The translations under genes were made by a program, and so were the position numbers. From IMG/VR virus record IMGVR_UViG_2667527591_000023: 34,158 nucleotides of DNA, one strand, 5' to 3'. Shown here piece after piece: positions 1-33,871 of the stretch. Positions within the stretch are counted from its first letter, which is position 1. Each line of letters begins with the position of its first letter. This stretch comes from a virus. Lineage: Duplodnaviria; Heunggongvirae; Uroviricota; Caudoviricetes. Under the pieces are notes generated by a model. The model was given only the letters and a program-made list of their open reading frames with translations. It was not told the origin of the DNA and did not search any database.

Positions 1-1032
1 TCAAAAACTTGCTATTGATGTTGGTAGTGTTGCCAGCGGATTAAACCGTAATGCAGTTTCCAGGTGATCCGGTGCCAGATGTGCGTAACGCATAGTCATT
101 TTTATGTCGTGATGTCCGAGGATTTTTTGCAAAGCAAGGATATTTCCACCCGACATCATAAAATGCGCCGCAAACGTATGGCGCAGAACGTGTGTCAGTT
201 GACCGCGAGGGAGCACGATAGACGTTTTTTCCATCACGGATAAAAATTGAAAATAGCAGTCTGTGAAGAAATTGAACCCATCAAGCGCCATGATCTCTTC
301 GTAAAGCTCTTTACTGATAGGGATGCTTCTGTTTTTCTTCCCCTTCGTTCTTACAAAGGTAATTCGGTATTTGGTCACCTGTGAGCGGGTAAGATTTACG
401 GCTTCACGCCAGCGTGCGCCAGTGCTTAAGCATATCTTAACTACCAGTGCCAGAATTGGGTCCTGACGTTTACAATCAGCCAGCAATTCAACAATCTGTT
501 CATGGGTAAGCCATGCCATCTCTTTTTCTGCGATGGTGAATTTTCGCATGTTCTCCAGTGGGTTCGGATACGACCATTCGCCCAGGCGGGATAGTTCGCT
601 AAAAACACTACTAAGATAGCTTTGCTCCAGGTTAATAGTGACTGGGCTTGCTCCTTTTTTCCATTTCTCGCTGAAGTAGATCTCACCCGTCAGGCGTTTA
701 TCTCGATAGTGGGCAAACATTTTAGATGTGAGATCGGTTGCAAGGGGATTGCCCAGAGCGTCAACCATCAACAGCAATTTGTCATAGACATGCTGCCCAG
801 CGGTTAGAGATTTACCATGTAGTTTGAACCATAGCTCAACTACGTCTTTCAGTGTTCGACGATCCACTGATTCACCCAGCCAGGGCTTTGCTTCGGTTTC
901 TTCCATCGTGTGGCGCTCAAAAGCCAGAGCTTCGCCTTTGGTGGCGAATTGTTTACGCACACGACGCCCACTACGTCCGGCGGGGTAACATTCGCAAAGC
1001 CATTTCCCTGTGGTGAGTTTTCGTACTGCCAT
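1..1032 (-). CDS. int: P2-family tyrosine integrase (343 aa from MAVRKL; in-frame upstream extension to 1188 unlikely)
   Basis: C-terminal tyrosine recombinase motifs (LRHTFA..H..GG, ILGHxxxxMTMRYAHL); N-terminus MAVRKL..GK resembles P2 Int; stop codon at 1..3. Confidence 0.9.
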   Translation of the reverse strand: MAVRKLTTGKWLCECYPAGRSGRRVRKQFATKGEALAFERHTMEETEAKPWLGESVDRRTLKDVVELWFKLHGKSLTAGQHVYDKLLLMVDALGNPLATDLTSKMFAHYRDKRLTGEIYFSEKWKKGASPVTINLEQSYLSSVFSELSRLGEWSYPNPLENMRKFTIAEKEMAWLTHEQIVELLADCKRQDPILALVVKICLSTGARWREAVNLTRSQVTKYRITFVRTKGKKNRSIPISKELYEEIMALDGFNFFTDCYFQFLSVMEKTSIVLPRGQLTHVLRHTFAAHFMMSGGNILALQKILGHHDIKMTMRYAHLAPDHLETALRFNPLATLPTSIASF

Positions 1033-1220
1033 AAAAAATGCCCTCCAGTAGAGAGCATTTTTACTGTATGTATAACCAGTGTCAATGTATGAAATCCTAC
1101 GACCATACATCTCACTGAAGCCATAATGAAGTTGGCTATTCTTTTTGCTATGTGAGCATGTAACTTTTGCGGTTAACCTGCGGCTCATTTTTATTTTAGA
1201 CGCAGATATAAAAGCAAAAG

Positions 1221-2927: not shown

Positions 2928-3224
2928 ATGCTGACGAAAGAACCATCATTTGCATCGCTGCTGGTAAAACAAAGCCCGGCAATGCACTACGGTCACGGCT
3001 GGATCACGGGTGAGGATGGAAAACGCTGGCATCCATGTCATTCACAAGATGAATTGCTGTCTAAATTGACCACGAGGAAACGGAGAAAGTCCAAATGTAT
3101 GCGGCAGAAAGTGAAGTGGTTTATCAGTTTCGTTACAGAGGGGAGAGTTATTCAGTACCTGAAGATGATTTGCTCTGTTGCTATCCGTCATTGTCGGGCG
3201 ATGGCAGTTACTTTTTCGCGTTAA
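2928..3224 (+). CDS. Hypothetical early protein; C-terminal ~43 codons overlap the next gene out of frame, so the true gene may be shorter or carry a lost stop
   Basis: ORF with GAGGTG before ATG 2928; N-terminal part looks protein-like, tail looks like out-of-frame read-through. Confidence 0.35.
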   Translation: MLTKEPSFASLLVKQSPAMHYGHGWITGEDGKRWHPCHSQDELLSKLTTRKRRKSKCMRQKVKWFISFVTEGRVIQYLKMICSVAIRHCRAMAVTFSR

Positions 3225-3319
3225 AGGATGGGACATTTTTACGGGGAGAGCAGGTTAAAGAGACGATACGAAAAAATGTATCTCCTCTTGAGCGTTACCG
3301 TAAGAACAAAGAACGATAG
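3095..3319 (+). CDS. Hypothetical early protein (74 aa)
   Basis: GGAG RBS before ATG 3095; protein-like composition. Confidence 0.55.
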   Translation: MYAAESEVVYQFRYRGESYSVPEDDLLCCYPSLSGDGSYFFALKDGTFLRGEQVKETIRKNVSPLERYRKNKER

Positions 3320-3341
3320 CTGCGTTTGGGGGATATGAAGT

Positions 3342-3683
3342 ATGGCAATTAATGGCGCTGCAGCAACTGTTCCATTAAGCCCCGGTGAACGCCTGAATGG
3401 ACTTAATCACATTGCGGAGTTAAGGGCGAAAGTTTTTGGCCTGAATATTGAGTCAGAGCTTGAGCGGTTTATTAAAGATATGCGTGATCCACGGGATATC
3501 AATAATGAACAAAATAAACGGGCACTGGCTGCCATATTCTTTATGGCAAAAATTCCAGCTGAACGTCATAGCATCAGCATTAATGAGCTGACCACTGACG
3601 AAAAGCGGGAGCTGATTAAAGCAATGAATCATTTTCGTGCAGTGGTGAGCTTATTTCCCAGACGGCTAACCATGCCGAATTAA
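3342..3683 (+). CDS. Hypothetical early protein (113 aa)
   Basis: ORF in early operon with upstream G-rich RBS. Confidence 0.6.
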   Translation: MAINGAAATVPLSPGERLNGLNHIAELRAKVFGLNIESELERFIKDMRDPRDINNEQNKRALAAIFFMAKIPAERHSISINELTTDEKRELIKAMNHFRAVVSLFPRRLTMPN

Positions 3684-3750: not shown

Positions 3751-3984
3751 ATGCGTAATATTGAAACCCTCTCGACTAAAACCGGACCGGATGACGCAGG
3801 GCTTAATATTTTACTGACAGAAGCTCGTCTGGAAGAACGCCGGGCAAGGGCTGAAGCAATGGCAGCTCGCCTTGATAGCCTGGCGTGTCATATAACATCC
3901 CGCCAGCTAAACCACGTCGAAGCGGCAGAACTGCTGCGTGTGAATGCTGAAGCAATCCAGAACGAAGCGCAGGAGATCCACTGA
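3751..3984 (+). CDS. Hypothetical early protein (77 aa), predicted helical/coiled coil
   Basis: AGGAG RBS then ATG 3751; stop overlaps the next start (TGATG). Confidence 0.6.
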   Translation: MRNIETLSTKTGPDDAGLNILLTEARLEERRARAEAMAARLDSLACHITSRQLNHVEAAELLRVNAEAIQNEAQEIH

Positions 3985-4211
3985 TGGCTGATGCAATGGA
4001 TCTCGTACAGCAGCGCGTTGAAGAAGAACGCCAGCGTCATATCCGTGCTGCCCGCGCCAAAACGCCGGGCGTGTCCCGCGTGCTTTGCATTGAGTGTGAA
4101 GCAGCAATTCCGCCAGCACGCCGCCGTGCCATTCCTGGAGTGCAGCTTTGCATTACCTGCCAGGAAATCGCAGAGCTGAAAGGCAAACATTACAACGGAG
4201 GTGCTGTATGA
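3984..4211 (+). CDS. TraR/DksA-family C4 zinc-finger protein (75 aa)
   Basis: C-x2-C ... C-x2-C motif (CIECEA .. CITCQ); translationally coupled on both sides. Confidence 0.8.
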   Translation: MADAMDLVQQRVEEERQRHIRAARAKTPGVSRVLCIECEAAIPPARRRAIPGVQLCITCQEIAELKGKHYNGGAV

Positions 4212-14787: not shown

Positions 14788-15252
14788 ATGAAGTTTGTTG
14801 CGCCAGAACAGGCACCGGAACAGGCGGAAATCATCAGAAATACGCCGTTCTGGCCTGATGTGGACCTGTCGGAGTTTCGCAGTGTCATGCGCACTGACGG
14901 CACGGTGACGCAGCCGCGTTTAAAGCAGGTTGCGCTGTCGGCAATTTCGGAGGTCAACGCAGAGCTGTATGAGTTTCGCAGACGCCAGCAGATGCTGGGG
15001 TATGCCTCGCTGGCAGAGGTTCCGGCGGAACAGCTGGACGGCAAAAGTGAGCGCATTCAGCACTATTTCAACGCGGTTTACTGCTGGGCACGCGCCATGC
15101 TCAACGAACGTTACCAGGACTATGACGCCACGGCATCCGGTGTGAAGCGGGGCGAGGAACTGGCGGAAGCCAGCGGTGATTTATGGCGTGACGCCCGCTG
15201 GGCCATCAGCCGGGTACAGGACGCGCCGCACTGCACAGTGGAGCTTATCTGA
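14788..15252 (+). CDS. L: Head completion/stabilisation protein (P2 gpL family); ATG 14788 preferred over upstream non-ATG track start
   Basis: AGGAG RBS before ATG 14788; position. Confidence 0.85.
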   Translation: MKFVAPEQAPEQAEIIRNTPFWPDVDLSEFRSVMRTDGTVTQPRLKQVALSAISEVNAELYEFRRRQQMLGYASLAEVPAEQLDGKSERIQHYFNAVYCWARAMLNERYQDYDATASGVKRGEELAEASGDLWRDARWAISRVQDAPHCTVELI

Positions 15253-15455
15253 TGAAAGTGCGTGCGCATCAGTATGACACGGTGGACGCGCTTTGCTGGC
15301 GTCATTACGGGCGCACGCAGGGTGTCACGGAGCAGGTACTGAAGGCAAATCCGGGGCTTGCCGAATATGGCCCCTTTTTACCTCACGGGCTGCAGGTGGA
15401 GCTGCCGGACATTCCGACAACCACCACCGTGCAGACCGTCCAGCTATGGGACTGA
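15252..15455 (+). CDS. X: Tail protein X (P2 gpX family), 67 aa
   Basis: Size and position; start overlaps L stop. Confidence 0.85.
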   Translation: MKVRAHQYDTVDALCWRHYGRTQGVTEQVLKANPGLAEYGPFLPHGLQVELPDIPTTTTVQTVQLWD

Positions 15456-15458
15456 ATT

Positions 15459-15674
15459 ATGACGCTTGAGCGAATCAGCGCCTTTATCACGTATTGCATC
15501 GCCGTCGTGCTGGCCTGGCTGGGCGATTTGTCCATCAAGGATGCCTCAACGCTGGGCGGCCTGATGATCGGTGTGCTGATGCTGGCTATCAACTGGTACT
15601 ACAAACACAAAGCCTACCAGCTTCTGCGCGACGGGCAGATCACGCGGGAGGACTATGAATCCATCAATCGTTAA
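15459..15674 (+). CDS. Class II holin / pinholin-like protein (71 aa, two predicted TM helices)
   Basis: Two hydrophobic segments plus charged C-terminus; immediately precedes and overlaps the endolysin. Confidence 0.75.
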   Translation: MTLERISAFITYCIAVVLAWLGDLSIKDASTLGGLMIGVLMLAINWYYKHKAYQLLRDGQITREDYESINR

Positions 15675-16167
15675 ACGCTGCCTTGTCGGGACCGTGCTGG
15701 CTATTGCTGCCACGCTGCCGGGTTTTCAGCAGCTTCACACCTCCGTGGAAGGACTGAAACTGATTGCCGATTACGAAGGCTGTCGTCTGCAGCCGTATCA
15801 GTGCAGCGCGGGTGTATGGACTGACGGCATTGGTAATACGTCGGGCGTCATTCCCGGCAAAACCATTACGGAACGACAGGCAGCAGAAGGGCTTATCTCC
15901 AACGTGCTGCGTGTGGAGCGGGCGCTGGAAAGATGTGTGAAGCAACAGCCGCCACAAAAGGTGTATGACTCGGTGGTGTCGTTTGCCTTCAACGTGGGGA
16001 CAGGCAATGCCTGCAGCTCCACGCTGGTGAAATTGCTCAATCAGCGGCGCTGGGCGGATGCGTGCCGACAGTTGCCGCGCTGGGTTTATGTAAAAGGTGT
16101 GTTTAATCAGGGGCTGGATAACCGCCGTGCGCGGGAGATGGCCTGGTGTTTACAGGGAGCAAACTGA
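15655..16167 (+). CDS. SAR endolysin, P1 Lyz / phage 21 R-like lysozyme (170 aa)
   Basis: Gly/Ala-rich weakly hydrophobic N-terminal segment containing Cys9; catalytic region EG..L.AY.....GVWTDG.G.T; Cys pair in YEGCRLQPYQC. Confidence 0.85.
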   Translation: MNPSIVKRCLVGTVLAIAATLPGFQQLHTSVEGLKLIADYEGCRLQPYQCSAGVWTDGIGNTSGVIPGKTITERQAAEGLISNVLRVERALERCVKQQPPQKVYDSVVSFAFNVGTGNACSSTLVKLLNQRRWADACRQLPRWVYVKGVFNQGLDNRRAREMAWCLQGAN

Positions 16168-16168
16168 A

Positions 16169-16546
16169 ATGAAAAAGAAATTAATCAGCGGACTGTTTCT
16201 GATGTTATGGATGGCGTTGTTAATCGCAGCAATGGTGTATCCGCAGGGGATTTTTCCGGTACTGGCAGCGTCCGGCGTTTGGGTAGCCTGTTTGCTGACA
16301 TGGGCGGTAATTCCGGTAGCACTGGCTGCGTTAATTAATAATAGCCCGCTCTGGCAGGAGTTAAGGGCATCTTTGCTGAAGACAATTACCCGAAAAGAAA
16401 ACGTATTTATCAGTTGGGTGATGCGATTGCTGATTGTCGTAAGTCTCGCCTGGACGGGGTGGGCTATTACCCTGGTCTTTTATCTGCTGACCGTTATTGC
16501 CTTCTGGATCACCCGTAATCAGATGGCGCAACAGGTAGCAGCATGA
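16169..16546 (+). CDS. lysA: LysA-like multi-TM membrane protein (125 aa)
   Basis: Predicted TM helices; position between endolysin and spanin genes. Confidence 0.6.
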   Translation: MKKKLISGLFLMLWMALLIAAMVYPQGIFPVLAASGVWVACLLTWAVIPVALAALINNSPLWQELRASLLKTITRKENVFISWVMRLLIVVSLAWTGWAITLVFYLLTVIAFWITRNQMAQQVAA

Positions 16547-16971
16547 ACCGGTTGCTGCTGGTTGTGCTGGCGTTATTACTGGCGGCGCTGGGCTGGCAGA
16601 CGTGGCGGCTGGCTGATGCCAGCCAGACCATCAGCACGCAGTCAGACGAGCTGCAGAGCAAAAGCCAGACACTGGCAAAGAGCAACAGCCAGCTTATTAG
16701 CCTGTCCATTCTGACTGAAACCAATAACCGGGAGCAGGCGCGGCTCTATGCCGAAGCAGAACAGACCAGCGCGCTGCTGAGACAACGACAACACCGGATC
16801 GAGGAGCTGAAACGTGAGAACGAGGATTTACGCCGCTGGGCTGATACTCCTTTGCCTGCTGACATTATCCGGCTGCGGGAACGTCCGACACTCACCGGAG
16901 GTGCAGCTTACCGTCAGTGGTTGTCCGCGAGTGACGCCGTGTCGGCTGGAGCAGGCAACGCCGCGCACTAA
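16543..16971 (+). CDS. lysB: Inner-membrane spanin component (Rz / P2 LysB-like)
   Basis: N-terminal TM anchor, coiled-coil middle, Pro-rich end; ATGA overlap with upstream gene. Confidence 0.8.
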   Translation: MNRLLLVVLALLLAALGWQTWRLADASQTISTQSDELQSKSQTLAKSNSQLISLSILTETNNREQARLYAEAEQTSALLRQRQHRIEELKRENEDLRRWADTPLPADIIRLRERPTLTGGAAYRQWLSASDAVSAGAGNAAH

Positions 16972-17104
16972 CGGTGATCTGGACGCGTTGCTGGATGAAA
17001 CGGAGGCCGCCTGGGCGGTCTGTGCAGACAAAGTGGACATGATTATTGCGTGTCAGGAGCGAAACAGTGAACAAACCACAATCCCTGCGCCACGCCCTCA
17101 ATAA
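16814..17104 (+). CDS. lysC: Outer-membrane lipoprotein spanin component (Rz1 / P2 LysC-like), GTG start, overlapping lysB in another frame
   Basis: Lipobox LTLSGC after signal peptide; GAGGAG RBS; begins inside lysB and extends past it. Confidence 0.75.
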   Translation: MRTRIYAAGLILLCLLTLSGCGNVRHSPEVQLTVSGCPRVTPCRLEQATPRTNGDLDALLDETEAAWAVCADKVDMIIACQERNSEQTTIPAPRPQ

Positions 17105-17498
17105 AGCGGTGCCTTATGTCCGCAATAACCCGGACAAACTGCATCTGTTTGTGGATAACGGTTCGCTGGTTGCCACGGGGGCCAGCTCCATGTCGTGGGA
17201 GTACCGTTACACCCTGAACGCGGTGATTGAGGATTTCAGCGGCGACCAGAATCTGCTGATGGCCCCGGTTTTGCTGTGGCTGAGGGATAACCAGCCCGAT
17301 GCCATCAATAACCCGGCGTTACGGGAAAAACTATTCACCTTTGAGGTGGATATTCTGCGCAACGATGTCTGTGATATCAGCCTGAACCTGCAACTGACGG
17401 AACGTGTGCTGGTCAGCACTGACGGCAGTGTGTCGAGTGTTGAAGCTGTAGCGGAACCCGATGAACCTGAAGAAATGTGGACGGTGAAACGTGGCTGA
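17067..17498 (+). CDS. R: Tail completion protein (P2 gpR family); GTG 17067 preferred, TTG 17046 possible
   Basis: Position and size; AGGAG RBS before GTG. Confidence 0.8.
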   Translation: MNKPQSLRHALNKAVPYVRNNPDKLHLFVDNGSLVATGASSMSWEYRYTLNAVIEDFSGDQNLLMAPVLLWLRDNQPDAINNPALREKLFTFEVDILRNDVCDISLNLQLTERVLVSTDGSVSSVEAVAEPDEPEEMWTVKRG

Positions 17499-19835: not shown

Positions 19836-20433
19836 TCTGCTGCCACCGGGTTCAACACTACTGGAGCGCCGACTGGCGCAAACCTGCAGCGGGATTTCTG
19901 ATCTGCAGGTGCCGCTGCGTGACTTGTGGAATCCGGCAACCTGTCCAGTCAGTTTCCTGCCTTATCTCGCCTGGGCGTTCTCTGTGGATCGCTGGGACGA
20001 GAGCTGGACAGAAAGCGTCAAGCGCCAGGTGGTGAAGGATGCTTTTTATATTCATCAGCATAAAGGGACCACCAGTGCCGTGCGGCGGGTGGTGGAGCCG
20101 TTCGGCTTTCTGATCCGCATTATTGAGTGGTGGCAGACCGGAGAGGCACCGGGCACGTTTCGTCTGGATATCGGTGTGCAGGACCAGGGCATCACTGAAG
20201 ATACCTATCTGGAACTTGAGCGACTGATAAGCGATGCCAAACCATGTAGCCGTCACATGATCGGCATGTCCATCAACCTGCAGACCAGCGGCCCGCATTG
20301 GGTGGGAGCCGCCAGCTATCTTGGCGAAGAAATCACGATCTATCCGTATATCAACGAAACAATTATTTCCGGCGGCACCGCGCATGAAGGCGGGGCGGTC
20401 CATGTTATTGACACAATGAGAGTGAATCCATGA
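19828..20433 (+). CDS. I: Baseplate/tail protein (P2 gpI family)
   Basis: Position and size; overlapping starts and stops. Confidence 0.88.
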   Translation: MNSLLPPGSTLLERRLAQTCSGISDLQVPLRDLWNPATCPVSFLPYLAWAFSVDRWDESWTESVKRQVVKDAFYIHQHKGTTSAVRRVVEPFGFLIRIIEWWQTGEAPGTFRLDIGVQDQGITEDTYLELERLISDAKPCSRHMIGMSINLQTSGPHWVGAASYLGEEITIYPYINETIISGGTAHEGGAVHVIDTMRVNP

Positions 20434-21851
20434 GCACAAAATTTTATACCCTGCTAACGGATATTGGCGCGGCGAAACTTGCCAGCGCCGCCGCGCTCGG
20501 TGTGCCTTTAAAAATTACCCATATGGCGGTCGGCGATGGTGGCGGAACATTGCCAACGCCGGACGCAAAGCAGACAGCATTAGTAAATGAGAAACGCCGG
20601 GCTGCGCTGAATATGCTCTATATCGACCCGCAGAACAGCAGCCAGATTATTGCTGAACAGGTGATCCCTGAAAACGAGGGCGGTTGGTGGATACGTGAAG
20701 TGGGCCTGTTTGATGAATCAGGGGCATTGATTGCCGTGGGAAACTGCCCGGAAAGCTATAAGCCGCAACTGGCTGAAGGTAGCGGGCGCACTCAGACCGT
20801 GCGCATGGTGCTGATTACCAGCAGCACGGACAATATCACCCTGAAAATCGACCCTGCTGTAGTGCTGTCAACCCGCAAGTATGTGGATGACAAGGCACTG
20901 GAGCTGAAGGTGTACGCGGATGATCAGATGGCAAAACATCTTGCCGCACCGGACCCGCATTCACAGTATGCACCCAAAGAAAGTCCGACGTTTACCGGGA
21001 CACCCAAAGCGCCAACGCCAGCAGCAGGGAATAACACCACGCAGATTGCGACCACCGCGTTTGTTCAGGCGGCTCTGACGGCTCTTATTAATGGTGCGCC
21101 AGCCACGCTGGACACGCTGAAAGAAATAGCCGCAGCCATTAACAATGATCCGAATTTCAGTACCACCATTAACAATGCGCTGGCACAAAAAGCGCCGCTG
21201 TCGAGTCCAGCACTCACCGGAACGCCAACAGCACCTACTGCGGCACAGTCGGTCAACAATACACAGATTGCCACTACAGCTTTTGTGAAATCAGCGATTG
21301 CAGCAATGGTGGGTTCTGCACCCGCGGCACTGGATACACTGAACGAACTGGCGGCGGCACTGGGGAATGATCCGAACTTTGCCACGACAATGCTTAATGC
21401 GCTGGCAGGTAAACAACCGCTGGACAATACGCTTACCAATTTGAGTGGAAAGGATGTAGCTGGTCTTCTCGCATACCTTGGTTTGGGAGAAGCAGCGAAA
21501 CGGGGGGTGGGAACAGGGGAAAATCAGATACCGGACATGGCTTCTTTTGCCAGTGGTGATGGATGGATGAAATTACCAAACGGTAAAATTCTGCAATATG
21601 GTCGAGGTGAGGCTATGCCGAAATTATCGACGCAAACAATGAGGATTACATTTCCTATCCCTTTCCCTAAAAAAGCGGACTGCGCCATGCTTACTCATTC
21701 TGGTGATGGAGGTGCGCCTTTAGGCGCTGGGCGAGGGTTCGTGATGACTGCAGAAGGCCCAACGTTAACCGGCTTTAATTCTGCTTACAGAACGTCATCA
21801 ACCAGCGACACGGTATCGATGAATTACAGTTGGTGGGCTGTTGGTGAGTAA
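20430..21851 (+). CDS. H: Tail fibre protein (P2 gpH family); C-terminal ~120 aa lie inside the invertible segment (current orientation)
   Basis: Conserved N-terminal tail-fibre domain, internal tandem repeats, recombination site inside the ORF. Confidence 0.9.
   Translation: MSTKFYTLLTDIGAAKLASAAALGVPLKITHMAVGDGGGTLPTPDAKQTALVNEKRRAALNMLYIDPQNSSQIIAEQVIPENEGGWWIREVGLFDESGALIAVGNCPESYKPQLAEGSGRTQTVRMVLITSSTDNITLKIDPAVVLSTRKYVDDKALELKVYADDQMAKHLAAPDPHSQYAPKESPTFTGTPKAPTPAAGNNTTQIATTAFVQAALTALINGAPATLDTLKEIAAAINNDPNFSTTINNALAQKAPLSSPALTGTPTAPTAAQSVNNTQIATTAFVKSAIAAMVGSAPAALDTLNELAAALGNDPNFATTMLNALAGKQPLDNTLTNLSGKDVAGLLAYLGLGEAAKRGVGTGENQIPDMASFASGDGWMKLPNGKILQYGRGEAMPKLSTQTMRITFPIPFPKKADCAMLTHSGDGGAPLGAGRGFVMTAEGPTLTGFNSAYRTSSTSDTVSMNYSWWAVGE
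20984..21422 (+). repeat. Tandem ~73-codon repeat (2 copies) within the tail-fibre gene
   Basis: Protein repeats ...NNTQIATTAFV...APA.LDTL.E.AAA..NDPNF.TT..NALA.K.PL twice in succession; DNA identity also visible. Confidence 0.8.
21465..21492. repeat. Left inversion crossover site (gix/hix-like, 13-2-13 imperfect palindrome) inside H
   Basis: CTTCTCGCATACC-TT-GGTTTGGGAGAAG; inner half-site is the inverted repeat of CTTCTCCCAAAC at 23365. Confidence 0.75.
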
Positions 21852-21871
21852 TTTTATTCAGGGTGATTTAT

Positions 21872-22315
21872 ATGAACGAATATGTTTATAGCGCAAGGCA
21901 TAATGCTTTTTTCCCTGTGGATATGATTGATAAATATAAATCAGAGGGATGGGATTTATCAGACGCTAAGGAAGTAAATCAAAATATTATCAGTGAGTTT
22001 ATGGATGAACCGCCACAAGGAAAAATCCGTATTGCCGGAGATGATGGGCTGCCTGCGTGGGCAGATATTCCTCCACCCACGCATGAAGAACTTATTGAAA
22101 TTACTGAATCAGAAAGACAGCTACTAATTCACCAGGCCAACGAATACATGAACAGTAAGCAATGGCCCGGTAAAGCCGCTATTGGTCGTCTGAAAGGCGA
22201 TGAGCTTGAACAGTATGGTTTGTGGCTTGATTATCTGGATGCTCTGGAAGTTTTAAACACCTCCAGCGCACCAGATATCGAGTGGCCTAACTCTCCGGAG
22301 GAACAGGCCAGATAA
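21872..22315 (+). CDS. G: Tail-fibre assembly chaperone (P2 gpG / Mu U family), cassette for the current orientation
   Basis: C-terminal motif SSAPDIEWPNSPE typical of Tfa proteins; follows H. Confidence 0.85.
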   Translation: MNEYVYSARHNAFFPVDMIDKYKSEGWDLSDAKEVNQNIISEFMDEPPQGKIRIAGDDGLPAWADIPPPTHEELIEITESERQLLIHQANEYMNSKQWPGKAAIGRLKGDELEQYGLWLDYLDALEVLNTSSAPDIEWPNSPEEQAR

Positions 22316-22886
22316 TAACAGGAGCCGTTGATATATCGACGGCTTGTAGTGCTTTGATGTAGCTCATCCAGGCGATCAGGCTAGCTTTATCTTCATCGCT
22401 GATAATGCCTAACTGTAGTTCTGTCTGCCAGAGACTGATCGTTGTCTGGGCCTCAAGCAGGAGCGCAGCTTTCTGTTGTTCCGCCGCTTCCACGTCCGCC
22501 GCGTTCTGCGCTTCCGTATCTGTCACCCACTCGCGACCGTTCCACGTATCGTAAGGCGTATCAGGTGCCAGCGTGGTGGTGCCTTCCGGGTATTCACCAG
22601 GCAAAGAAACGATCTCCGGCTCGCCTGTTTCAGTGCTGTACACCGTTTCACCACGGTGATCCGCGACGTATTCCCAGGCGGCAAAATCGGCTGTCCGGCA
22701 AATAGCAAAACCCTCTTTGCTCTCGCCGGGGGCGTCAATGCATGAGTTGGCTGGAATACCTACGCCCACGGCCAGATATTCAACAGATATAGAAAGGTAT
22801 TCTCGCGTCTCGTCATCATAGTTAAATACTGTAATATCGCCTGCCTCTGTGGCGATAAGTTCGTTGTTTAATTTTGCCTGTGCCAT
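22287..22886 (-). CDS. Alternative tail-fibre assembly chaperone (Tfa'), used after inversion
   Basis: C-terminal motif DISTAPVIIWPVPPES; convergent with and overlapping the plus-strand Tfa. Confidence 0.85.
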   Translation of the reverse strand: MAQAKLNNELIATEAGDITVFNYDDETREYLSISVEYLAVGVGIPANSCIDAPGESKEGFAICRTADFAAWEYVADHRGETVYSTETGEPEIVSLPGEYPEGTTTLAPDTPYDTWNGREWVTDTEAQNAADVEAAEQQKAALLLEAQTTISLWQTELQLGIISDEDKASLIAWMSYIKALQAVDISTAPVIIWPVPPES

Positions 22887-23419
22887 TATGCAGCCCTCAC
22901 AATGTAGTTAAATGCAACGTTTCGCGGCCTCGTTTCACTACCAAACATTTTTGAACCAAGTGTTGCCTTTGCGGTATATGTCTGCAATACCGTGCCAGTT
23001 GACGGGTTTGGGTTATATTCATTAGTTCCGTTCGGGTAATAAGCCATTGACGCATTGTTATCTATAAAAACAGCCGTCATTGGACCATCTCCGCCAGAAC
23101 TTGGTGAAGTTGGAATCCAGTGCCGGTGATCGAATGACATAGCACCCTGAGCAGAAAGCAAACCTCGCCCGCTATCAGCCCCGCGCCCGTCATCCCAGCC
23201 ACGAATAAATTCGCCTCTTAAATCAGGCAATCTGAGTGCAGGATAGGCCTGAGCCAATTTGGGGTACTGAGAAGCGGTAAACGCTGCTCCATTGCATTTT
23301 AGCCATCCAGTTGGTGGAGTTGCTGACGGCCACGGAACAGGCGCACCAACAGGTAATGCTGAACCTTCTCCCAAACTAACGTTTATGAAAATGCAGAGAT
23401 AACGGCTAACTGGCATCAT
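22886..23419 (-). CDS. Alternative tail-fibre C-terminal exon (H'), promoterless; fused to the H constant region only after inversion
   Basis: PWPS..PP.GWL.CNG..F....YP.L tail-fibre receptor-domain motif; right crossover site lies within its 5' end. Confidence 0.8.
   Translation of the reverse strand: MMPVSRYLCIFINVSLGEGSALPVGAPVPWPSATPPTGWLKCNGAAFTASQYPKLAQAYPALRLPDLRGEFIRGWDDGRGADSGRGLLSAQGAMSFDHRHWIPTSPSSGGDGPMTAVFIDNNASMAYYPNGTNEYNPNPSTGTVLQTYTAKATLGSKMFGSETRPRNVAFNYIVRAA
23365..23392. repeat. Right inversion crossover site (gix/hix-like)
   Basis: CTTCTCCCAAAC..., inverted relative to GGTTTGGGAGAAG at 21480..21492; just upstream of the invertase gene. Confidence 0.7.
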
Positions 23420-23446
23420 CTCCGGTTTTTATTCAGGGGGATGATC

Positions 23447-24013
23447 ATGCTTATTGGCTATGTACGCGTGTCAACAAATGACCAGAACACCGATTTGCAA
23501 CGCAATGCACTGAACTGTGCGGGATGTGAGCGGATTTTTGAGGATAAAATCAGTGGCACCAAGTCCGACAGACCGGGGCTGAAAAAGCTGCTCAGGACAC
23601 TATCGGCAGGAGACACGCTGGTTGTCTGGAAGCTGGACAGACTGGGGCGCAGTATGCGGCATCTTGTTACGCTGATAGAAGAGCTGCGCCAGCGTGGCGT
23701 GAATTTCCGAAGCCTGACTGACAGTATTGATACCAGCACCCCAATGGGCCGTTTCTTTTTTCATGTCATGGGTGCCCTGGCTGAAATGGAACGCGAACTG
23801 ATAGTTGAACGTACCAGGGCGGGGCTGGCTGCAGCTCGTGCTAAAGGCAGAGTAGGTGGACGCCGTCCTAAGTTGACCAGCGAACAGTGGGCACAGATTG
23901 GGCGTTTACTCGAGGCCGGAGAATCAAGACAGCGTATTGCACTGATTTTTGATGTAGGCGTTTCTACCATTTATCGAAAATTTCCGGCAAATAAGAACAA
24001 TAAATCTCCCTGA
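23447..24013 (+). CDS. Serine DNA invertase (Gin/Hin/Pin/Cin family), 188 aa
   Basis: N-terminal MLIGYVRVSTNDQ catalytic-serine motif, resolvase core, C-terminal HTH; alternative ATG at 23441. Confidence 0.93.
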   Translation: MLIGYVRVSTNDQNTDLQRNALNCAGCERIFEDKISGTKSDRPGLKKLLRTLSAGDTLVVWKLDRLGRSMRHLVTLIEELRQRGVNFRSLTDSIDTSTPMGRFFFHVMGALAEMERELIVERTRAGLAAARAKGRVGGRRPKLTSEQWAQIGRLLEAGESRQRIALIFDVGVSTIYRKFPANKNNKSP

Positions 24014-29414: not shown

Positions 29415-29896
29415 TGATGGTGCTGGGATTGTACGTGTTTATGCTGCGCACCGTGCCGTATCAGGAGCTGCAGTATCAACGCAGCTGGCGACATGCGGCA
29501 AACAGCCGGGTAAACCGACGTCCGTCCACGCAGTTTCTGGGACCGGACAACGACATGCTGACGCTTTCCGGTGTTCTTATGCCGGAGATAACAGGTGGCA
29601 GGATGTCGTTGCTGGCACTGGAGCAGATGGCAGAACAGGGGAAAGCATGGCCCCTGATTGAAGGCAGCGGCACGATTTATGGCATGTATGTGATTGAGGG
29701 ACTGAATCAGACTAAAACGGAGTTTTTCCGCGATGGTATGCCGCGCCGGATTGAGTTTACCCTGTCGCTCAAACGGGTGGATGAATCCCTGTCCGATATG
29801 TTCGGTGATCTCAGTGCGCAGCTGAATAATCTGCAGGATACGGCAACGTCTGCCTTAAGCGATATCAGTAAAACGGTGGGAGGGCTGCTGTCGTGA
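29411..29896 (+). CDS. U: Tail protein (P2 gpU family)
   Basis: Position and size; ATGA overlap. Confidence 0.88.
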   Translation: MMMVLGLYVFMLRTVPYQELQYQRSWRHAANSRVNRRPSTQFLGPDNDMLTLSGVLMPEITGGRMSLLALEQMAEQGKAWPLIEGSGTIYGMYVIEGLNQTKTEFFRDGMPRRIEFTLSLKRVDESLSDMFGDLSAQLNNLQDTATSALSDISKTVGGLLS

Positions 29897-31017
29897 ATTT
29901 CAGCTCTGAACTGCTTAACAAAGGCAACAAAACTCCCGCATTCAGCATCAGTATTGAGGGGAAGGATATCACCACTGTGCTGGATAACCGCCTGATGAGT
30001 CTGACGTTGACGGACAATCGGGGCTTTGAAGCAGACCAGCTTGATCTGGAGCTGGACGACGCCGACGGAAAAATCGTGCTGCCGCGCCGTGGGGCGGTCA
30101 TCACGCTGGCGCTGGGCTGGAAGGGGCAGCCGCTTTTCCCGAAAGGGGCATTCACGGTGGACGAGATTGAACACACCGGCGCACCGGATCGCCTGACTAT
30201 CCGGGCGCGAAGTGCTGATTTTAGGGAAACGCTGAATACCCGCCGTGAAAAATCGTGGCACAAGACCACTGTCGGGGAAGTGGTGAAGGAAATAGCCGCG
30301 CGTCATAAGCTGAAGATGGCACTGGGTAAAGACCTGTCGGATAAGCCCGTGGAGCATATAGACCAGACTAATGAGAGTGACGGCAGTTTTCTGATGCGGC
30401 TGGCGCGCCAGTACGGTGCCATCGCGTCGGTGAAAAATGGCAATCTGTTATTCATCCGGCAGGGACAGGGCAAAAGCGCCAGCGGTAAACCACTGCCGGT
30501 GATCTCAATCACACGTAAGGACGGCGACAGTCACCGCTTTACCCTGGCAGATCGCGGAGCCTACACGGGCGTAATTGCCAGCTGGTTGCATACCCGCGAA
30601 CCCGCGAAGAAAGAAAGCACCACGGTGAAGCGTAAGCGCAGGACTAAGAAGCAGAAGAAAGAGCCGGAAGCGAAGCAGGGCGATTACCTGGTGGGTACAG
30701 ATGAAAACGTGCTGGTACTTAATCGCACCTATGCCAACCGGAGCAACGCCGAACGGGCGGCGAAAATGCAGTGGGAACGCCTGCAACGCGGCGTTGCGTC
30801 ATTCTCGCTACAACTGGCAGAAGGTCGGGCAGATCTCTACACGGAAATGCCAGTGAAAGTCAGTGGCTTTAAACAGCCGATAGATGATGCGGAATGGACC
30901 ATTACGACTCTGACGCATACTGTCAGCCCGGATAACGGTTTTACGACCAGTTTGGAGCTTGAAGTGAAGATTGATGATTTCGAAATGGAAGGATTCTTCG
31001 CAATGGAGAACTTTTAA
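29893..31017 (+). CDS. D: Tail protein / late control gene D product (P2 gpD family); GTG start
   Basis: Position and size (374 aa). Confidence 0.88.
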   Translation: MNFSSELLNKGNKTPAFSISIEGKDITTVLDNRLMSLTLTDNRGFEADQLDLELDDADGKIVLPRRGAVITLALGWKGQPLFPKGAFTVDEIEHTGAPDRLTIRARSADFRETLNTRREKSWHKTTVGEVVKEIAARHKLKMALGKDLSDKPVEHIDQTNESDGSFLMRLARQYGAIASVKNGNLLFIRQGQGKSASGKPLPVISITRKDGDSHRFTLADRGAYTGVIASWLHTREPAKKESTTVKRKRRTKKQKKEPEAKQGDYLVGTDENVLVLNRTYANRSNAERAAKMQWERLQRGVASFSLQLAEGRADLYTEMPVKVSGFKQPIDDAEWTITTLTHTVSPDNGFTTSLELEVKIDDFEMEGFFAMENF

Positions 31018-31538: not shown

Positions 31539-33224
31539 TTATCCTAATCCTGGCCATACCATGACGATGATTGTCCCTGCCAGCGTCAGCAGGACGTTGG
31601 CGATTGCATAGGTGCCCGCATAGCCCAGCGCCGGGATGTTACTGCGAGCTGTATCACTGATGATCTCCATTGCCGGCGCGCAGGTGCGTGCGCCCATCAT
31701 TGCGCCGAACAACAGTGCGCGGTTCATTCGCAATACATAAGCACCGAACAAGAAACAGATAACCACTGGCACAAGACTGACAATCAATCCGGCAATCAAC
31801 ATCTGACCGCCAATCGCGCCCAGGCCGTTATTAATACCGCTACCGGCGCTCAGACCAACGCCTGCCATAAACACCATTAAGCCGAACTCTTTCACCATGC
31901 TTAATGCACCCTGCGGAATGTAACCGAAGGTCGGGTGGTTAGCGCGCATAAAGCCCAGCATAATTCCGGCGAATAACAACCCGGCAGCGTTCCCCATGCC
32001 GAAACTGAATGTGCTGAACTGGAAGGTGATCATCCCGATCATCAGCCCAATAACAAAGAAGGCGCAGAATGCCAGCAAGTCAGTGACCTGGCTGTGAATC
32101 GAGATAAAGCCGATGCGATCGGCGATGGTTTTTACGCGACGGGCATCGCCGCTGACTTGTAAAACGTCACCTTTGTTAAGCACGACGTTGTCATCTATCG
32201 GCATCTCAATCTGGCTACGAATGACGCGGTTAAGGAAGCAACCGTGATCGGTCAACTTCAGTTGTGCGAGACGTTTGCCCACGGCGTTATGGTTTTTAAC
32301 GACCACTTCTTCAGTGACGATACGCATGTCGAGAAGGTCACGATCGAAAACTTCTTTGCCGTTACGGAAGCTGGGATCGAGTCGTGCGTGGGCGTCGGGA
32401 TAGCCTACCAACGCTATTTCATCGCCCATTTGTAGCACAGCATCACCGTCTGGATTCGCCAGAATCCCGTTACGTCGAATACGTTCAATGTAGCAGCCAG
32501 TTTGTCGATAAATACCCAGTTCACGCAGATTTTTGCCGTCGGTCCAGGCCACCAGCTCCGGGCCGACGCGGTAGGCGCGGATCACCGGTAAATAAACCTT
32601 ACGGTTGGCATCAGTGTCCAGGCCACGTTCGCGGGCGATTTGCTGGGCGCTGGTCTGTAAGTCCTGATGCTGCAATTTCGGCAAGTAACGCGCACCAACA
32701 ATCAAACTCACCAGACCGATTAAATAGGTTAAGGCATACCCGAGGCTCAGATTATCCAGTGCCAGTGAGAGTTGCCTGCTTTCCATGCCGGAATGACGCA
32801 GTGTATCGCCAGCACCGACCAGAACCGGTGTCGACGTCATAGAGCCAGCTAACATACCGGCCGTCAGGCCAATATCCCAGCCAAACAGCTTACCTAACCC
32901 TAAGGCGATCACCAGCGCACTGCCAACCATCACCAGTGCTAACATTAGGTAATTTTTCCCATCGCGAAAAAAAATGGAAAAAAAGTTCGGTCCGGCTTCG
33001 ACCCCGACGCAGAAAATAAACAGCATAAAGCCAAGATTAAGCGCGTCGGTGTTAATGCTGAAATGTTGTTGGCCTAATAACAGCGATACGACTAAAACGC
33101 CAATGGAATTACCCAGTTGGATCGAACCAAGTCGTAATTTCCCGAGACATAGCCCAAGCGCGAGGACCACAAATAATAACAGAATGTAATTCCCATTTAA
33201 CAATTCGGCGACGTTTATATTCAC
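31539..33224 (-). CDS. ybjL: Putative transport protein YbjL (host), 561 aa
   Basis: Multi-TM protein with two central regulatory-type domains; matches E. coli YbjL as I recall it; conserved neighbourhood ybjM/grxA. Confidence 0.9.
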
Positions 33225-33493
33225 GGAGGCTAACTTCTTGTTTACTAGTAAGCTGTTGAAAGAAATGGTAATTTACGATAATGTTTTTTACCAGAATTCA
33301 GGGCGCAGATTCATTCAGCGCACCTAAACGATAGTAAAGTAACAATATATTTTACTAGTGTAATCACATTAGGTATCAACGGCTATATGAATTGCGTTGG
33401 CCTATATTAGCATGGAATGCGAAGCGGCTTTATCTTACTGAACGCCACACTGGCGAAAAATGTGTTCGATAGACGCAGTGTCAGGAGGAACGA

Positions 33494-33871
33494 GTGAAAC
33501 ATAAACAACGTTGGGCGGGGGCAATCTGCTGTTTTGTCCTCTTCATTGTGGTGTGTCTTTTTCTGGCGACGCACATGAAAGGCGCTTTTCGGGCTGCCGG
33601 GCATCCTGAAATCGGTTTGCTATTTTTCATTCTTCCTGGTGCAGTTGCCAGCTTCTTTTCACATCGTAGAGAAGTCCTGAAACCTCTGTTTGGCGCAATG
33701 CTGGCGGCACCCTGTTCGATGCTCATTATGCGGCTGTTTTTTTCACCGACGCGCTCATTCTGGCAAGAGCTGGCATGGTTATTAAGTGCGGTGTTCTGGT
33801 GTGCGCTGGGGGCATTGTGTTTCTTATTTATCAGTAGTTTGTTTAAACCACAGCACAGAAAAAATCAATAA
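33494..33871 (+). CDS. ybjM: Inner membrane protein YbjM (host), GTG start
   Basis: 125-aa hydrophobic protein between ybjL and grxA; AGGAGG RBS. Confidence 0.85.
   Translation: MKHKQRWAGAICCFVLFIVVCLFLATHMKGAFRAAGHPEIGLLFFILPGAVASFFSHRREVLKPLFGAMLAAPCSMLIMRLFFSPTRSFWQELAWLLSAVFWCALGALCFLFISSLFKPQHRKNQ

Follow-up and report, generated by a model that had tools for sequence, protein, structure and literature searches.

The lysis cassette of a P2-like prophage: a class II holin, probably a pinholin, a predicted P1 Lyz-type SAR endolysin and overlapped spanin genes

Gene content between tail genes X and R

The window, by which we mean the whole 34,158-nucleotide stretch analysed here (IMG/VR record IMGVR_UViG_2667527591_000023), carries a prophage with a full P2-like gene complement, from integrase through gene D. 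Positions 15459 to 17104 hold a five-gene lysis cassette, and all the features that an earlier note, made from the letters alone, had listed there lie where they had been placed (Table 1). The five genes are tightly packed and are flanked by the tail genes X and R. In the window each of the five frames is intact and has a good ribosome-binding site; the endolysin gene is preceded by GGGAGGA and overlaps the holin gene by 20 nt. The genes are not chance frames: each either passes the threshold of a curated family or has a strong profile E-value.

Table 1. Positions of the cassette genes, endolysin features and boundary genes in the window
Feature	Coordinates	Strand	Remarks
Class II holin, 71 aa	15459..15674	+	ATG start; HP1 holin family; probable pinholin
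SAR endolysin, 170 aa	15655..16167	+	ATG start; GH24 muramidase, P1 Lyz type
N-terminal signal-arrest-release segment (putative), endolysin aa 1-28	15655..15738	+	K7 R8, Cys9, core C9-L21, then P22-G23
Endolysin catalytic motif E41-x8-C50-x5-T56 and caging partner Cys43 (EGCRLQPYQCSAGVWT)	15775..15822	+	direct sequence reading
LysA-family membrane protein, 125 aa	16169..16546	+	ATG start; putative lysis-timing regulator or antiholin
LysB, Rz-like inner-membrane spanin, 142 aa	16543..16971	+	TIGR03495, phrog_89
LysC, Rz1-like outer-membrane lipoprotein spanin, 96 aa	16814..17104	+	GTG start; NF038368, PF23793
Tail protein X, left boundary gene	15252..15455	+	PF05489 E 2e-34; 61% identity with P2 X
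Tail completion protein R, right boundary gene	17067..17498	+	PF06891 E 4e-46; 53% identity with P2 R

The last three genes had been read as LysA-like, Rz-like and an overlapping, GTG-started Rz1-like lipoprotein, and all three proteins score above the NCBIfam cut-offs. LysB scored 176 bits against TIGR03495 (cut-off 92.75) and fell in phrog_89 with an E-value of 5.9e-46; it has an N-terminal transmembrane segment at residues 3-21 and is 33% identical to P2 LysB and 79% identical to Fels-2 LysB. LysC scored 123.5 bits against NF038368 (cut-off 27), matched PF23793 at E 5e-15 and is 42% identical to P2 LysC over residues 1-92. Its N-terminus, MRTRIYAAGLILLCLLTLSGC, confirms the proposed lipobox, LSGC with Cys21. 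No start codon other than GTG is available to it, and GAGGAG precedes the GTG by 7 nt. The lysC gene lies in the +1 frame inside lysB (overlap 16814-16971), and its stop codon, 17102-17104, is inside R. Judged by their sequences, LysB and LysC qualify as a predicted two-component spanin of the P2-type overlapped architecture, and the lysB/lysC arrangement agrees with that described for P2 (PMC3091744, PMC6139136). The LysA-family protein, whose gene sits after the endolysin gene, has four hydrophobic segments and scored 120.4 bits against NF038378 (cut-off 40), where P2 LysA scored 120.9; both belong to phrog_162 (E 2.8e-43 for the window protein). Their pairwise similarity is weak, with an E-value of 0.018.

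The endolysin and its cysteines

The endolysin matches the GH24 lysozyme family, PF00959, at E 2.7e-39, and of the proteins with solved structures P1 Lyz matches it best in sequence (1XJT/1XJU; E 6e-26 for 1XJT). The two enzymes have EGCRxxPYxCxAGVWTDGIGNT in common, the segment EGCRLQPYQCSAGVWT aligning with EGCRRDPYMCPAGVWT of P1 Lyz. The N-terminal part reads MNPSIVKRC9LVGTVLAIAATLPGF and, further on, YE41GC43RLQPYQC50SAGVWT56, so that Cys9 and the YEGCRLQPYQC pair, which the earlier note had likened to the arrangement in P1 Lyz, are exactly as quoted there. E41, C50 and T56 line up with their P1 Lyz counterparts, and E41 and T56 are invariant in the alignment. The E-8aa-D/C-5aa-T triad is a recognised motif of the P1, 21, phiKMV, Era103 and T4 enzymes (PMC4640515). 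An AlphaFold model, whose input alignment was run without the P1, HP1, Midge and R21 rows, had a pLDDT of 93 and packed the N-terminal segment onto the catalytic domain, with residues 10-30 at 94-96. The best fold match of this model was 1XJT, the full-length active P1 Lyz (TM 0.85), as against a TM of 0.58 for 1XJU, the inactive SAR-less form. Sequence and model together support the prediction of a SAR endolysin of the P1 Lyz type.

The sole hydrophobic segment of the protein is N-terminal and marginal, K7 and R8 being followed by a core of 13-16 residues. Its 19-residue sum is about +5.9 kcal/mol on a rough version of the Hessa scale, versus +0.5 to +0.8 for P1 Lyz and R21. The segment had been called Gly/Ala-rich, and here the description was overstated: Gly and Ala make up 5 of the 16 residues from 9 to 24 (7 of 16 if Thr is counted), and the hydrophobic core proper, only about 13 residues long, falls below the SAR domains of P1 Lyz and R21 both in length and in Gly/Ala content. 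The cysteine pattern is well conserved. In the alignment, Cys9, Cys43 and Cys50 are each at least 90% conserved, R21 lacking all three, and Cys9 is invariant in 27 SAR-type sequences. Of 17 diverse relatives whose N-terminus is SAR-like, 16 have all three cysteines together; for the N-terminal Cys the comparison is 16 of 17 such relatives versus 8 of 29 with non-hydrophobic N-termini (Fisher p = 9e-6). The Cys43/Cys50 pair occurs as well in 18 soluble relatives without any N-terminal extension and was for that reason rejected as sufficient evidence of caging; the marker for disulfide caging is a third Cys in the N-terminal segment, not the pair alone. Cys9 was also considered as a lipoprotein signal and rejected, since it is preceded by K-R and no hydrophobic region or lipobox lies ahead of it. 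The conservation of Cys9 and the structural model lead us to infer that the N-terminal segment is not cleaved. For P1 Lyz itself, Sec-dependent export, release when the proton-motive force is lost, holin-independent lysis upon overexpression and thiol-disulfide isomerisation were reportedly demonstrated by Xu et al. in 2004 and 2005, and the isomerisation is also reflected in the titles of the PDB entries. For HP1 Lys, SAR-endolysin behaviour has been partly demonstrated (PMC7312051).

About 40 of the best 120 database relatives of the endolysin are endolysin::LysA fusions of 277-296 aa. A natural fusion or programmed frameshift was considered and rejected, since every fusion is found only once and the shift points all differ. 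In addition, 24 codons ahead of its ATG are open in the LysA frame, and any 1-nt indel within them yields such a fusion. Several public records cut short the endolysin or the o-spanin by miscalled starts. In practice, it is the correct endolysin start, which keeps the Cys9 segment, and the GTG start of LysC that should be annotated.

The holin and the proposed lysis route

The holin had been described as a small two-TM protein of class II, and we agree. Two hydrophobic segments, at residues 6-24 and 29-47, are followed by a charged C-terminal tail; the protein scored 36.7 bits against PF16080, the HP1 holin family (cut-off 28.8), and its RefSeq name is 'HP1 family phage holin'. A class II holin with two predicted transmembrane helices is therefore supported. 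Against PF04971, the S21 family, the score was 23.1 bits, under the cut-off of 26. The protein falls in phrog_20 (E 1.9e-26) together with S21 and HP1 Hol, is 28% identical to S21 and 18% identical to HP1 Hol, and has the motifs [DE][KR]IS..I.Y and N.Y[YF]K in common with them. On helix 2 a small-residue face, S30-G34-G38, is in register with S21 G40-S44-G48 by our reading of the alignment. A search of the holin sequence for a dual-start motif found none. On a rough, position-independent scale of the Hessa type, helix 1 came to about +2.4 kcal/mol, near helix 2 at +2.9, and helix 1 of S21 to more than +6; the latter escapes detection as a membrane segment in the same hydrophobicity scan. A weakly hydrophobic, releasable (SAR-like) helix 1 as in S21 was thus not found in the window holin, and because its helix 1 is about as hydrophobic as its helix 2, an S21-style exit of helix 1 is not to be assumed. 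Such a helix is what characterises the mechanism of S21 in particular; pinholins as a class are not defined by it.

Pinholins are a functional class, making holes too small for a folded endolysin and depolarising the membrane without lysis (PMC9025707, PMC6116005). HP1 Hol behaves as a pinholin, killing E. coli without lysis or β-galactosidase leakage, and is paired with a P1-Lyz-like SAR endolysin (PMC7312051); P1 LydD, encoded beside lyz, is also a pinholin (PMC9025707). S21, of the same PHROG as the window holin, is likewise pinholin-like in experiments. The earlier note had proposed a pinholin and SAR-endolysin cassette. The endolysin half of that proposal is supported, together with the likeness to P1 Lyz drawn there, and neither of the two outcomes named in the note as speaking against it was seen; for the other half homology and adjacency make the holin a probable pinholin, pinhole size being unreadable from sequence.

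Three other readings were weighed. The holin might be no pinholin but a canonical large-hole holin whose role, like that of P1 LydA towards Lyz, is just to trigger a SAR endolysin that has already been exported. Holin and pinholin sequences are not reliably separable, and SAR endolysins work with either, P1 LydA being an example (PMC9025707, PMC6116005); moreover, the near equality of the two helices, where S21 has a weak SAR-type helix 1, the subthreshold match to the S21 family and the low confidence with which the near-identical holin of KP12 was modelled as a heptamer (pLDDT about 51; PMC9902359) all suit a large-hole holin. Set against this, the holin scores above the threshold of a family whose founder was pinholin-like in experiments (PMC7312051), it is tied to S21 by PHROG, by identity and by the face of helix 2, and the neighbours of SAR endolysin genes are typically pinholin genes (PMC9025707). 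We regard a large-hole holin as possible but rather unlikely, and keep to a probable pinholin.

The endolysin N-terminus might likewise be an ordinary cleaved Sec signal peptide, which would leave a soluble periplasmic enzyme and not a tethered SAR protein. The length of the C9-L21 core is typical of a signal-peptide h-region, and an A-x-A motif, A16-I17-A18, is present, but the motif lies in mid-core and not beyond the helix breaker P22-G23, and a good site is also absent downstream. Prediction programs, SignalP among them, call the N-terminus of the HP1 homologue, Lys, a cleavable signal peptide (PMC7312051) and might treat the window segment likewise; a cleaved peptide, however, would not keep Cys9, which is invariant in the SAR-type relatives with the Cys43/Cys50 pair, and a periplasmic Cys43-Cys50 cage without Cys9 could not open. 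The model, with its confidently placed N-terminal residues and its best match to the P1 Lyz form that retains the SAR domain, also argues against cleavage, which we hold to be very unlikely; a tethered SAR endolysin is preferred. That the cassette is a decaying, non-functional remnant in a cryptic prophage is hardly credible, given the intact frames, their ribosome-binding sites, the complete P2-like gene set and the isolated plaque-forming phages that have the same cassette at 97.6-98.5% identity (PMC9902359), even though in many database copies a frameshift carries the endolysin into the LysA frame and Fels-2 has a split gene in the lysA slot.

In our view the cassette very probably belongs to the late operon of an integrated P2-like (Peduoviridae, Wadgaonvirus/Felsduovirus-like) prophage and brings about lysis by the pinholin/SAR-endolysin route. 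This route is a textbook alternative lysis pathway. What the analysis shows directly is how the genes are arranged, which families they belong to, the cysteine pattern with its co-conservation, the fold and the mosaic boundaries; for how the endolysin is exported, tethered and activated by disulfide exchange, for the size of the holes and for what LysA does, homology suggests the following course. The host Sec system would export the endolysin, which its weakly hydrophobic N-terminal segment would tether to the inner membrane, where a disulfide between Cys43 and the catalytic Cys50 would keep it inactive. The 71-aa holin would accumulate in the membrane and trigger, most likely opening small holes that collapse the proton-motive force. 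The endolysin N-terminal segment could then exit the bilayer, and the thiol of Cys9 would attack Cys43-Cys50, giving Cys9-Cys43 and a free Cys50. The released segment would fold onto the endolysin, and the cell wall would be degraded; the LysB/LysC spanin pair would next disrupt the outer membrane. The LysA-family membrane protein may modulate the timing of lysis.

Module exchange and comparison with known systems

Comparison with P2-like relatives indicates that the modular exchange of lysis genes within the late operon, which had also been proposed, is real. The flanking proteins are 33-61% identical to those of P2, while neither the holin nor the endolysin significantly matches P2 Y or K. 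Residual homology to these was considered and rejected, the E-values of 0.002 for the holin versus Y (in a nine-sequence database) and 0.1 for the endolysin versus K not being meaningful. P2 and 186 have unrelated Y/K genes between homologous flanks, and Midge and 186 differ by the same holin/endolysin swap, with neighbours 93-100% identical. The expectation that PSP3 and 186 would carry the window cassette was not borne out; both have P2-type Y and K and no lysA. Similarity of the DNA to Fels-2 is broken at 16175-16542, almost exactly the lysA gene, and lysA is absent from 186, PSP3 and HP1 among the genomes compared. As the cassette shows, the X-to-R interval of P2-like phages has at least two independently exchangeable slots, one for holin and endolysin and one for lysA.

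An antiholin phenotype, a delay of lysis, is known only from P2 lysA mutants (cited in PMC3091744). The LysA family is found downstream of two unrelated pairs, Y and K in P2 and, in the window and Midge, a class II holin paired with a SAR endolysin; Midge LysA is 43% identical to P2 LysA, and the window LysA is barely alignable to either. Because LysA relationships do not match holin type, and because the lysA slot is swapped on its own, LysA might modulate lysis timing whatever the type of holin, for instance through the energy state of the membrane or the release of the tethered endolysin, and not be the antiholin of one holin. We offer this as a speculation that we ourselves doubt; if true, LysA is not tailored to one holin.

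The reading of the cassette is correct but already known, and the cassette is common. Its DNA is 98.5% identical to that of Escherichia phage 500465-1, with a 100% identical endolysin, and 97.6% identical to that of Klebsiella phages KP12 and 4LV2017. In KP12 the SAR domain was already noted and the cassette described likewise (PMC9902359), as was that of Midge, with class II holin, SAR endolysin, antiholin and spanins (PMC12697156), and the Fels-2 cassette is annotated in like manner. In P2-like phages, then, the pinholin/SAR route is experimental for HP1 and annotated for Fels-2, Midge and KP12. This exact cassette is present in 1038 of 5426 complete E. coli genomes, about a fifth. The finding has little import beyond correct annotation.

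Among known systems, HP1 hol-lys is like the window in that a P2-like phage has a PF16080 class II holin gene overlapping a P1-Lyz-like endolysin gene (PMC7312051); the HP1 endolysin also has an N-terminal hydrophobic segment with a Cys and an EGC...C motif, and neither holin has a dual start. HP1 differs in the low identity of the holins (18%), in the place of its cassette, which follows the tail tube gene and does not lie between X and R, in having no LysA-family gene and in its longer SAR segment. P1 Lyz resembles the window endolysin in fold, in catalytic motif and in the equivalent SAR, caging and catalytic Cys, with seven cysteines in each; overall identity, however, is 35%, and the window SAR core is about 6 residues shorter and without the Gly run. 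P1 LydD belongs to another PHROG and is unrelated to the window holin, its gene lies downstream of lyz, and P1 additionally uses canonical holins encoded elsewhere (PMC9025707).

Phage 21 has the same order of holin, SAR endolysin and spanins, and its 71-aa S21 matches the window holin in length as well as in PHROG. In R21 the catalytic residue is Asp and the three regulatory cysteines are all missing, which makes its control steric and not disulfide-based; S21 differs in its dual start and its Gly/Ser-rich first helix, and the phage 21 spanin genes are embedded, where those of the window are overlapped. P2 Y-K-lysA-lysB-lysC shares with the window its X-to-R position, the LysA, LysB and LysC families and a +1-frame lysC that ends in R (PMC3091744). 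In P2, by contrast, the holin Y is of class I (PF04550, three transmembrane helices) and the endolysin K is soluble. Fels-2 has a holin 79% and an endolysin 92% identical to those of the window, and its lysA slot holds an unrelated, frameshifted gene.

Gene layout and prophage setting

Five closely packed plus-strand genes lie between tail gene X and tail completion gene R, and the coordinates and motifs (Cys9, YEGCRLQPYQC and LTLSGC) given in an earlier note proved exact. LysC can start only at a GTG, which GAGGAG precedes by 7 nt. The window is an integrated P2-like prophage which, besides the genes tabulated, carries CI repressor, Dam methylase, replication protein A, portal, terminase and tail genes; its right end is chromosomal, with a ybjL-like permease (Asp-Al_Ex) and ybjM within 31539-33871. 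The window opens exactly at the integrase stop codon. Given this start and the chromosomal genes at the other end, the right attachment site should lie between the end of gene D (31017) and ~31539; no tRNA gene was found in the window. Downstream of the plus-strand tail fibre and assembly gene, a second fibre piece, a second assembly gene and a resolvase occupy 22287-24013, and the region looks like an invertible host-range segment.

Features of the lysis cassette and of the prophage around it
Feature	Position	Strand	Remarks
Integrase	1-1188	-	phage gene
Tail gene X	15252-15455		left neighbour of cassette
Holin	15459-15674	+	71 aa
Endolysin	15655-16167	+	170 aa; 20-nt overlap with holin gene; GGGAGGA ahead of ATG
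LysA-family membrane protein	16169-16546	+	125 aa
LysB	16543-16971	+	
LysC	16814-17104	+	+1 frame within lysB; ends inside R
Tail completion gene R	17067-17498		right neighbour of cassette
Tail fibre	20430-21851	+	
Tail-fibre assembly gene	21863-22315	+	
Second tail-fibre assembly gene	22287-22886	-	
Second tail-fibre C-terminal piece	22886-23419	-	tail collar domain
Hin/Cin-type resolvase	23441-24013		adjoins second fibre piece and assembly gene
Gene D	29893-31017		phage gene

Cysteines and N-terminus of the endolysin

The endolysin is a GH24 phage lysozyme (PF00959, E = 2.7e-39) whose top sequence match among solved structures is P1 Lyz (1XJT, the full-length active form, E = 6e-26; 1XJU, the SAR-less inactive form); the two share the block EGCRxxPYxCxAGVWTDGIGNT. 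Residues E41, C50 and T56 agree with the E-8aa-D/C-5aa-T triad recognised for the P1, 21, phiKMV, Era103 and T4 enzymes (PMC4640515). Cys43 is placed like the cysteine that cages P1 Lyz, and the protein's only hydrophobic segment opens with Cys9. Across 32 aligned sequences, conservation is at least 90% at each of C9, C43 and C50, all three of which are lacking in R21 of phage 21; among the 27 SAR-type (signal-arrest-release) sequences, C9 and C50 are invariant. Cluster representatives obtained by searching 1.8 billion proteins were classified by N-terminus. A cysteine in the N-terminal segment was present in 16 of the 17 diverse relatives that combine a SAR-like N-terminus with the Cys pair, the sole exception having an apparently truncated start, compared to 8 of 29 with non-hydrophobic N-termini (Fisher p = 9e-6). 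Since 18 relatives without any N-terminal extension also have a Cys43/Cys50-type pair, the pair by itself is uninformative on caging, and the residue that informs is the third cysteine. The Cys-for-Asp catalytic variant (E-x8-C-x5-T) is widespread among soluble relatives without an N-terminal extension, occurring in 37 of 57 cluster representatives (18 of the 37 with the second Cys), which indicates that a Cys-containing active site is not restricted to SAR-type enzymes.

An AlphaFold model of the endolysin, built on a 27-row alignment (mean pLDDT 93; residues 10-30 at 94-96), had 1XJT as its top structural match (TM 0.85 over 173 columns), while secreted inactive P1 Lyz without the SAR domain gave 0.58. 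The hydrophobic core is short (C9-L21, then P22-G23-F24), and the segment is less Gly/Ala-rich than those of P1 Lyz and R21, so that its earlier description as Gly/Ala-rich was overstated. Scored roughly on the Hessa scale, regardless of residue position, its best 19-residue stretch comes to ~+5.9 kcal/mol, versus +0.5 to +0.8 for P1 Lyz and R21. The short core, together with an A-x-A motif at mid-core, might lead a predictor to call a cleavable signal peptide, and SignalP did call one for the HP1 homologue (PMC7312051). Cleavage is nevertheless very unlikely: conservation of Cys9 favours a segment kept in the mature enzyme, no cleavage site follows the helix breaker, and the model packs the segment confidently onto the catalytic domain. 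These features argue for a predicted N-terminal segment that is retained in the mature endolysin.

The holin

Hydrophobic segments at residues 6-24 and 29-47, followed by a charged C-terminus in a protein of 71 aa, bear out the small two-TM class II holin proposed earlier. The protein scores above the Pfam cut-off for the HP1 holin family (PF16080, 36.7 bits vs 28.8) and just under that for the S21 family (23.1 vs 26), and it belongs to phrog_20 along with S21, the prototype pinholin (E = 1e-32), HP1 Hol and the holin of Escherichia phage Midge. S21 is 28% identical to it and HP1 Hol 18%, and N-terminal and post-helix-2 motifs are common to all three. E. coli cells are killed by HP1 Hol but neither lyse nor leak beta-galactosidase, and phage release depends on this protein (PMC7312051); P1 LydD, adjoining lyz, is also a pinholin (PMC9025707). 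From these family relationships the window holin is probably a pinholin. Caution comes from helix 1, which is as hydrophobic as helix 2, whereas that of S21 is Gly/Ser-rich and is not even picked up as a membrane segment by the same hydrophobicity scan, and from the lack of a dual start in the window holin. Further, a pinholin is defined by what it does and cannot be told from a holin by its sequence, and canonical holins can also serve SAR endolysins (PMC9025707, PMC6116005). A canonical holin is an unlikely alternative, given the kinship with S21 and HP1 Hol.

Exchange of lysis genes and comparison with known phages

The LysA-family protein and P2 LysA both score 120 bits against NCBIfam NF038378, and both are in phrog_162, a LysA family that PHROGs mislabels 'endolysin'. 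Aligned directly, the two are only weakly similar; each has four hydrophobic segments (for P2, PMC3091744). LysB passes the equivalog model TIGR03495 and LysC passes NF038368, so that the LysA-like, Rz-like and overlapping Rz1-like assignments hold. The LysA frame is open for 24 codons 5' of its ATG (16097-16168), across the end of the endolysin gene, and ~40 of the best 120 database relatives are endolysin::LysA fusions of 277-296 aa. Every fusion is a singleton, and the frameshift point differs from one to the next; a real fusion was rejected, indel errors in assemblies or decaying prophages being most likely.

Compared with P2, identity is 33-61% for the flanking proteins L, X, LysB, LysC, R and S, while neither the holin nor the endolysin meaningfully matches P2 Y (class I, PF04550) or K. 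The swap shows more cleanly between Midge and phage 186, which reach 93-100% identity in L, LysB, LysC, R and S, yet Midge has a class II holin, SAR endolysin and LysA gene in place of 186's Y and K. The modular exchange suggested earlier is thus borne out. Against Salmonella Fels-2, DNA similarity is 86% up to 16174 and 84% from 16543, and it is lost across lysA; the break (16175-16542; Fels-2 3217-3582) matches lysA almost exactly. The Fels-2 slot holds an unrelated small membrane-protein gene (phrog_7356), frameshift-split into 77-aa and 49-aa ORFs, and the slot is empty in 186, PSP3 and HP1. The lysA slot thus behaves as a second unit that is exchanged on its own. LysA-family genes are found with either of two unrelated kinds of holin and are swapped independently of them; as a modest lead, this would sit poorly with an antiholin made to match a single holin.

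The earlier note read the sequence correctly, and the cassette is ordinary and already described. It occurs in 1038 of 5426 complete E. coli genomes, labelled in RefSeq as HP1 family phage holin, lysozyme, DNZ54_00345 family protein, LysB and LysC. The Fels-2 record already mentions a two-helix holin and likeness to P1 Lyz, and Midge is annotated with class II holin, SAR endolysin, antiholin and spanins (PMC12697156). Lysis genes of relatives are miscalled in public annotations: the Fels-2 endolysin start (2690-2730) is placed 12 codons late, so that MNPSIVKRC is lost and the regulatory Cys with it, and the o-spanins of Escherichia phage 500465-1 (3112-3405; 39 aa) and Midge (3893-4195; 52 aa) are annotated short, losing signal sequence and lipobox.

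Varying lysis modules in P2-like phages have been described previously (PMC3091744), and LysB and LysC reproduce the 'overlapped' spanin architecture of P2 (PMC3091744, PMC6139136). The cassette is 98.5% identical to that of 500465-1, with an identical (100%) endolysin, and 97.6% identical to those of Klebsiella phages 4LV2017 and KP12; the model's match to 1XJT reproduces the published KP12 result (TM-align 0.83, SAR domain 'conserved'; PMC9902359).
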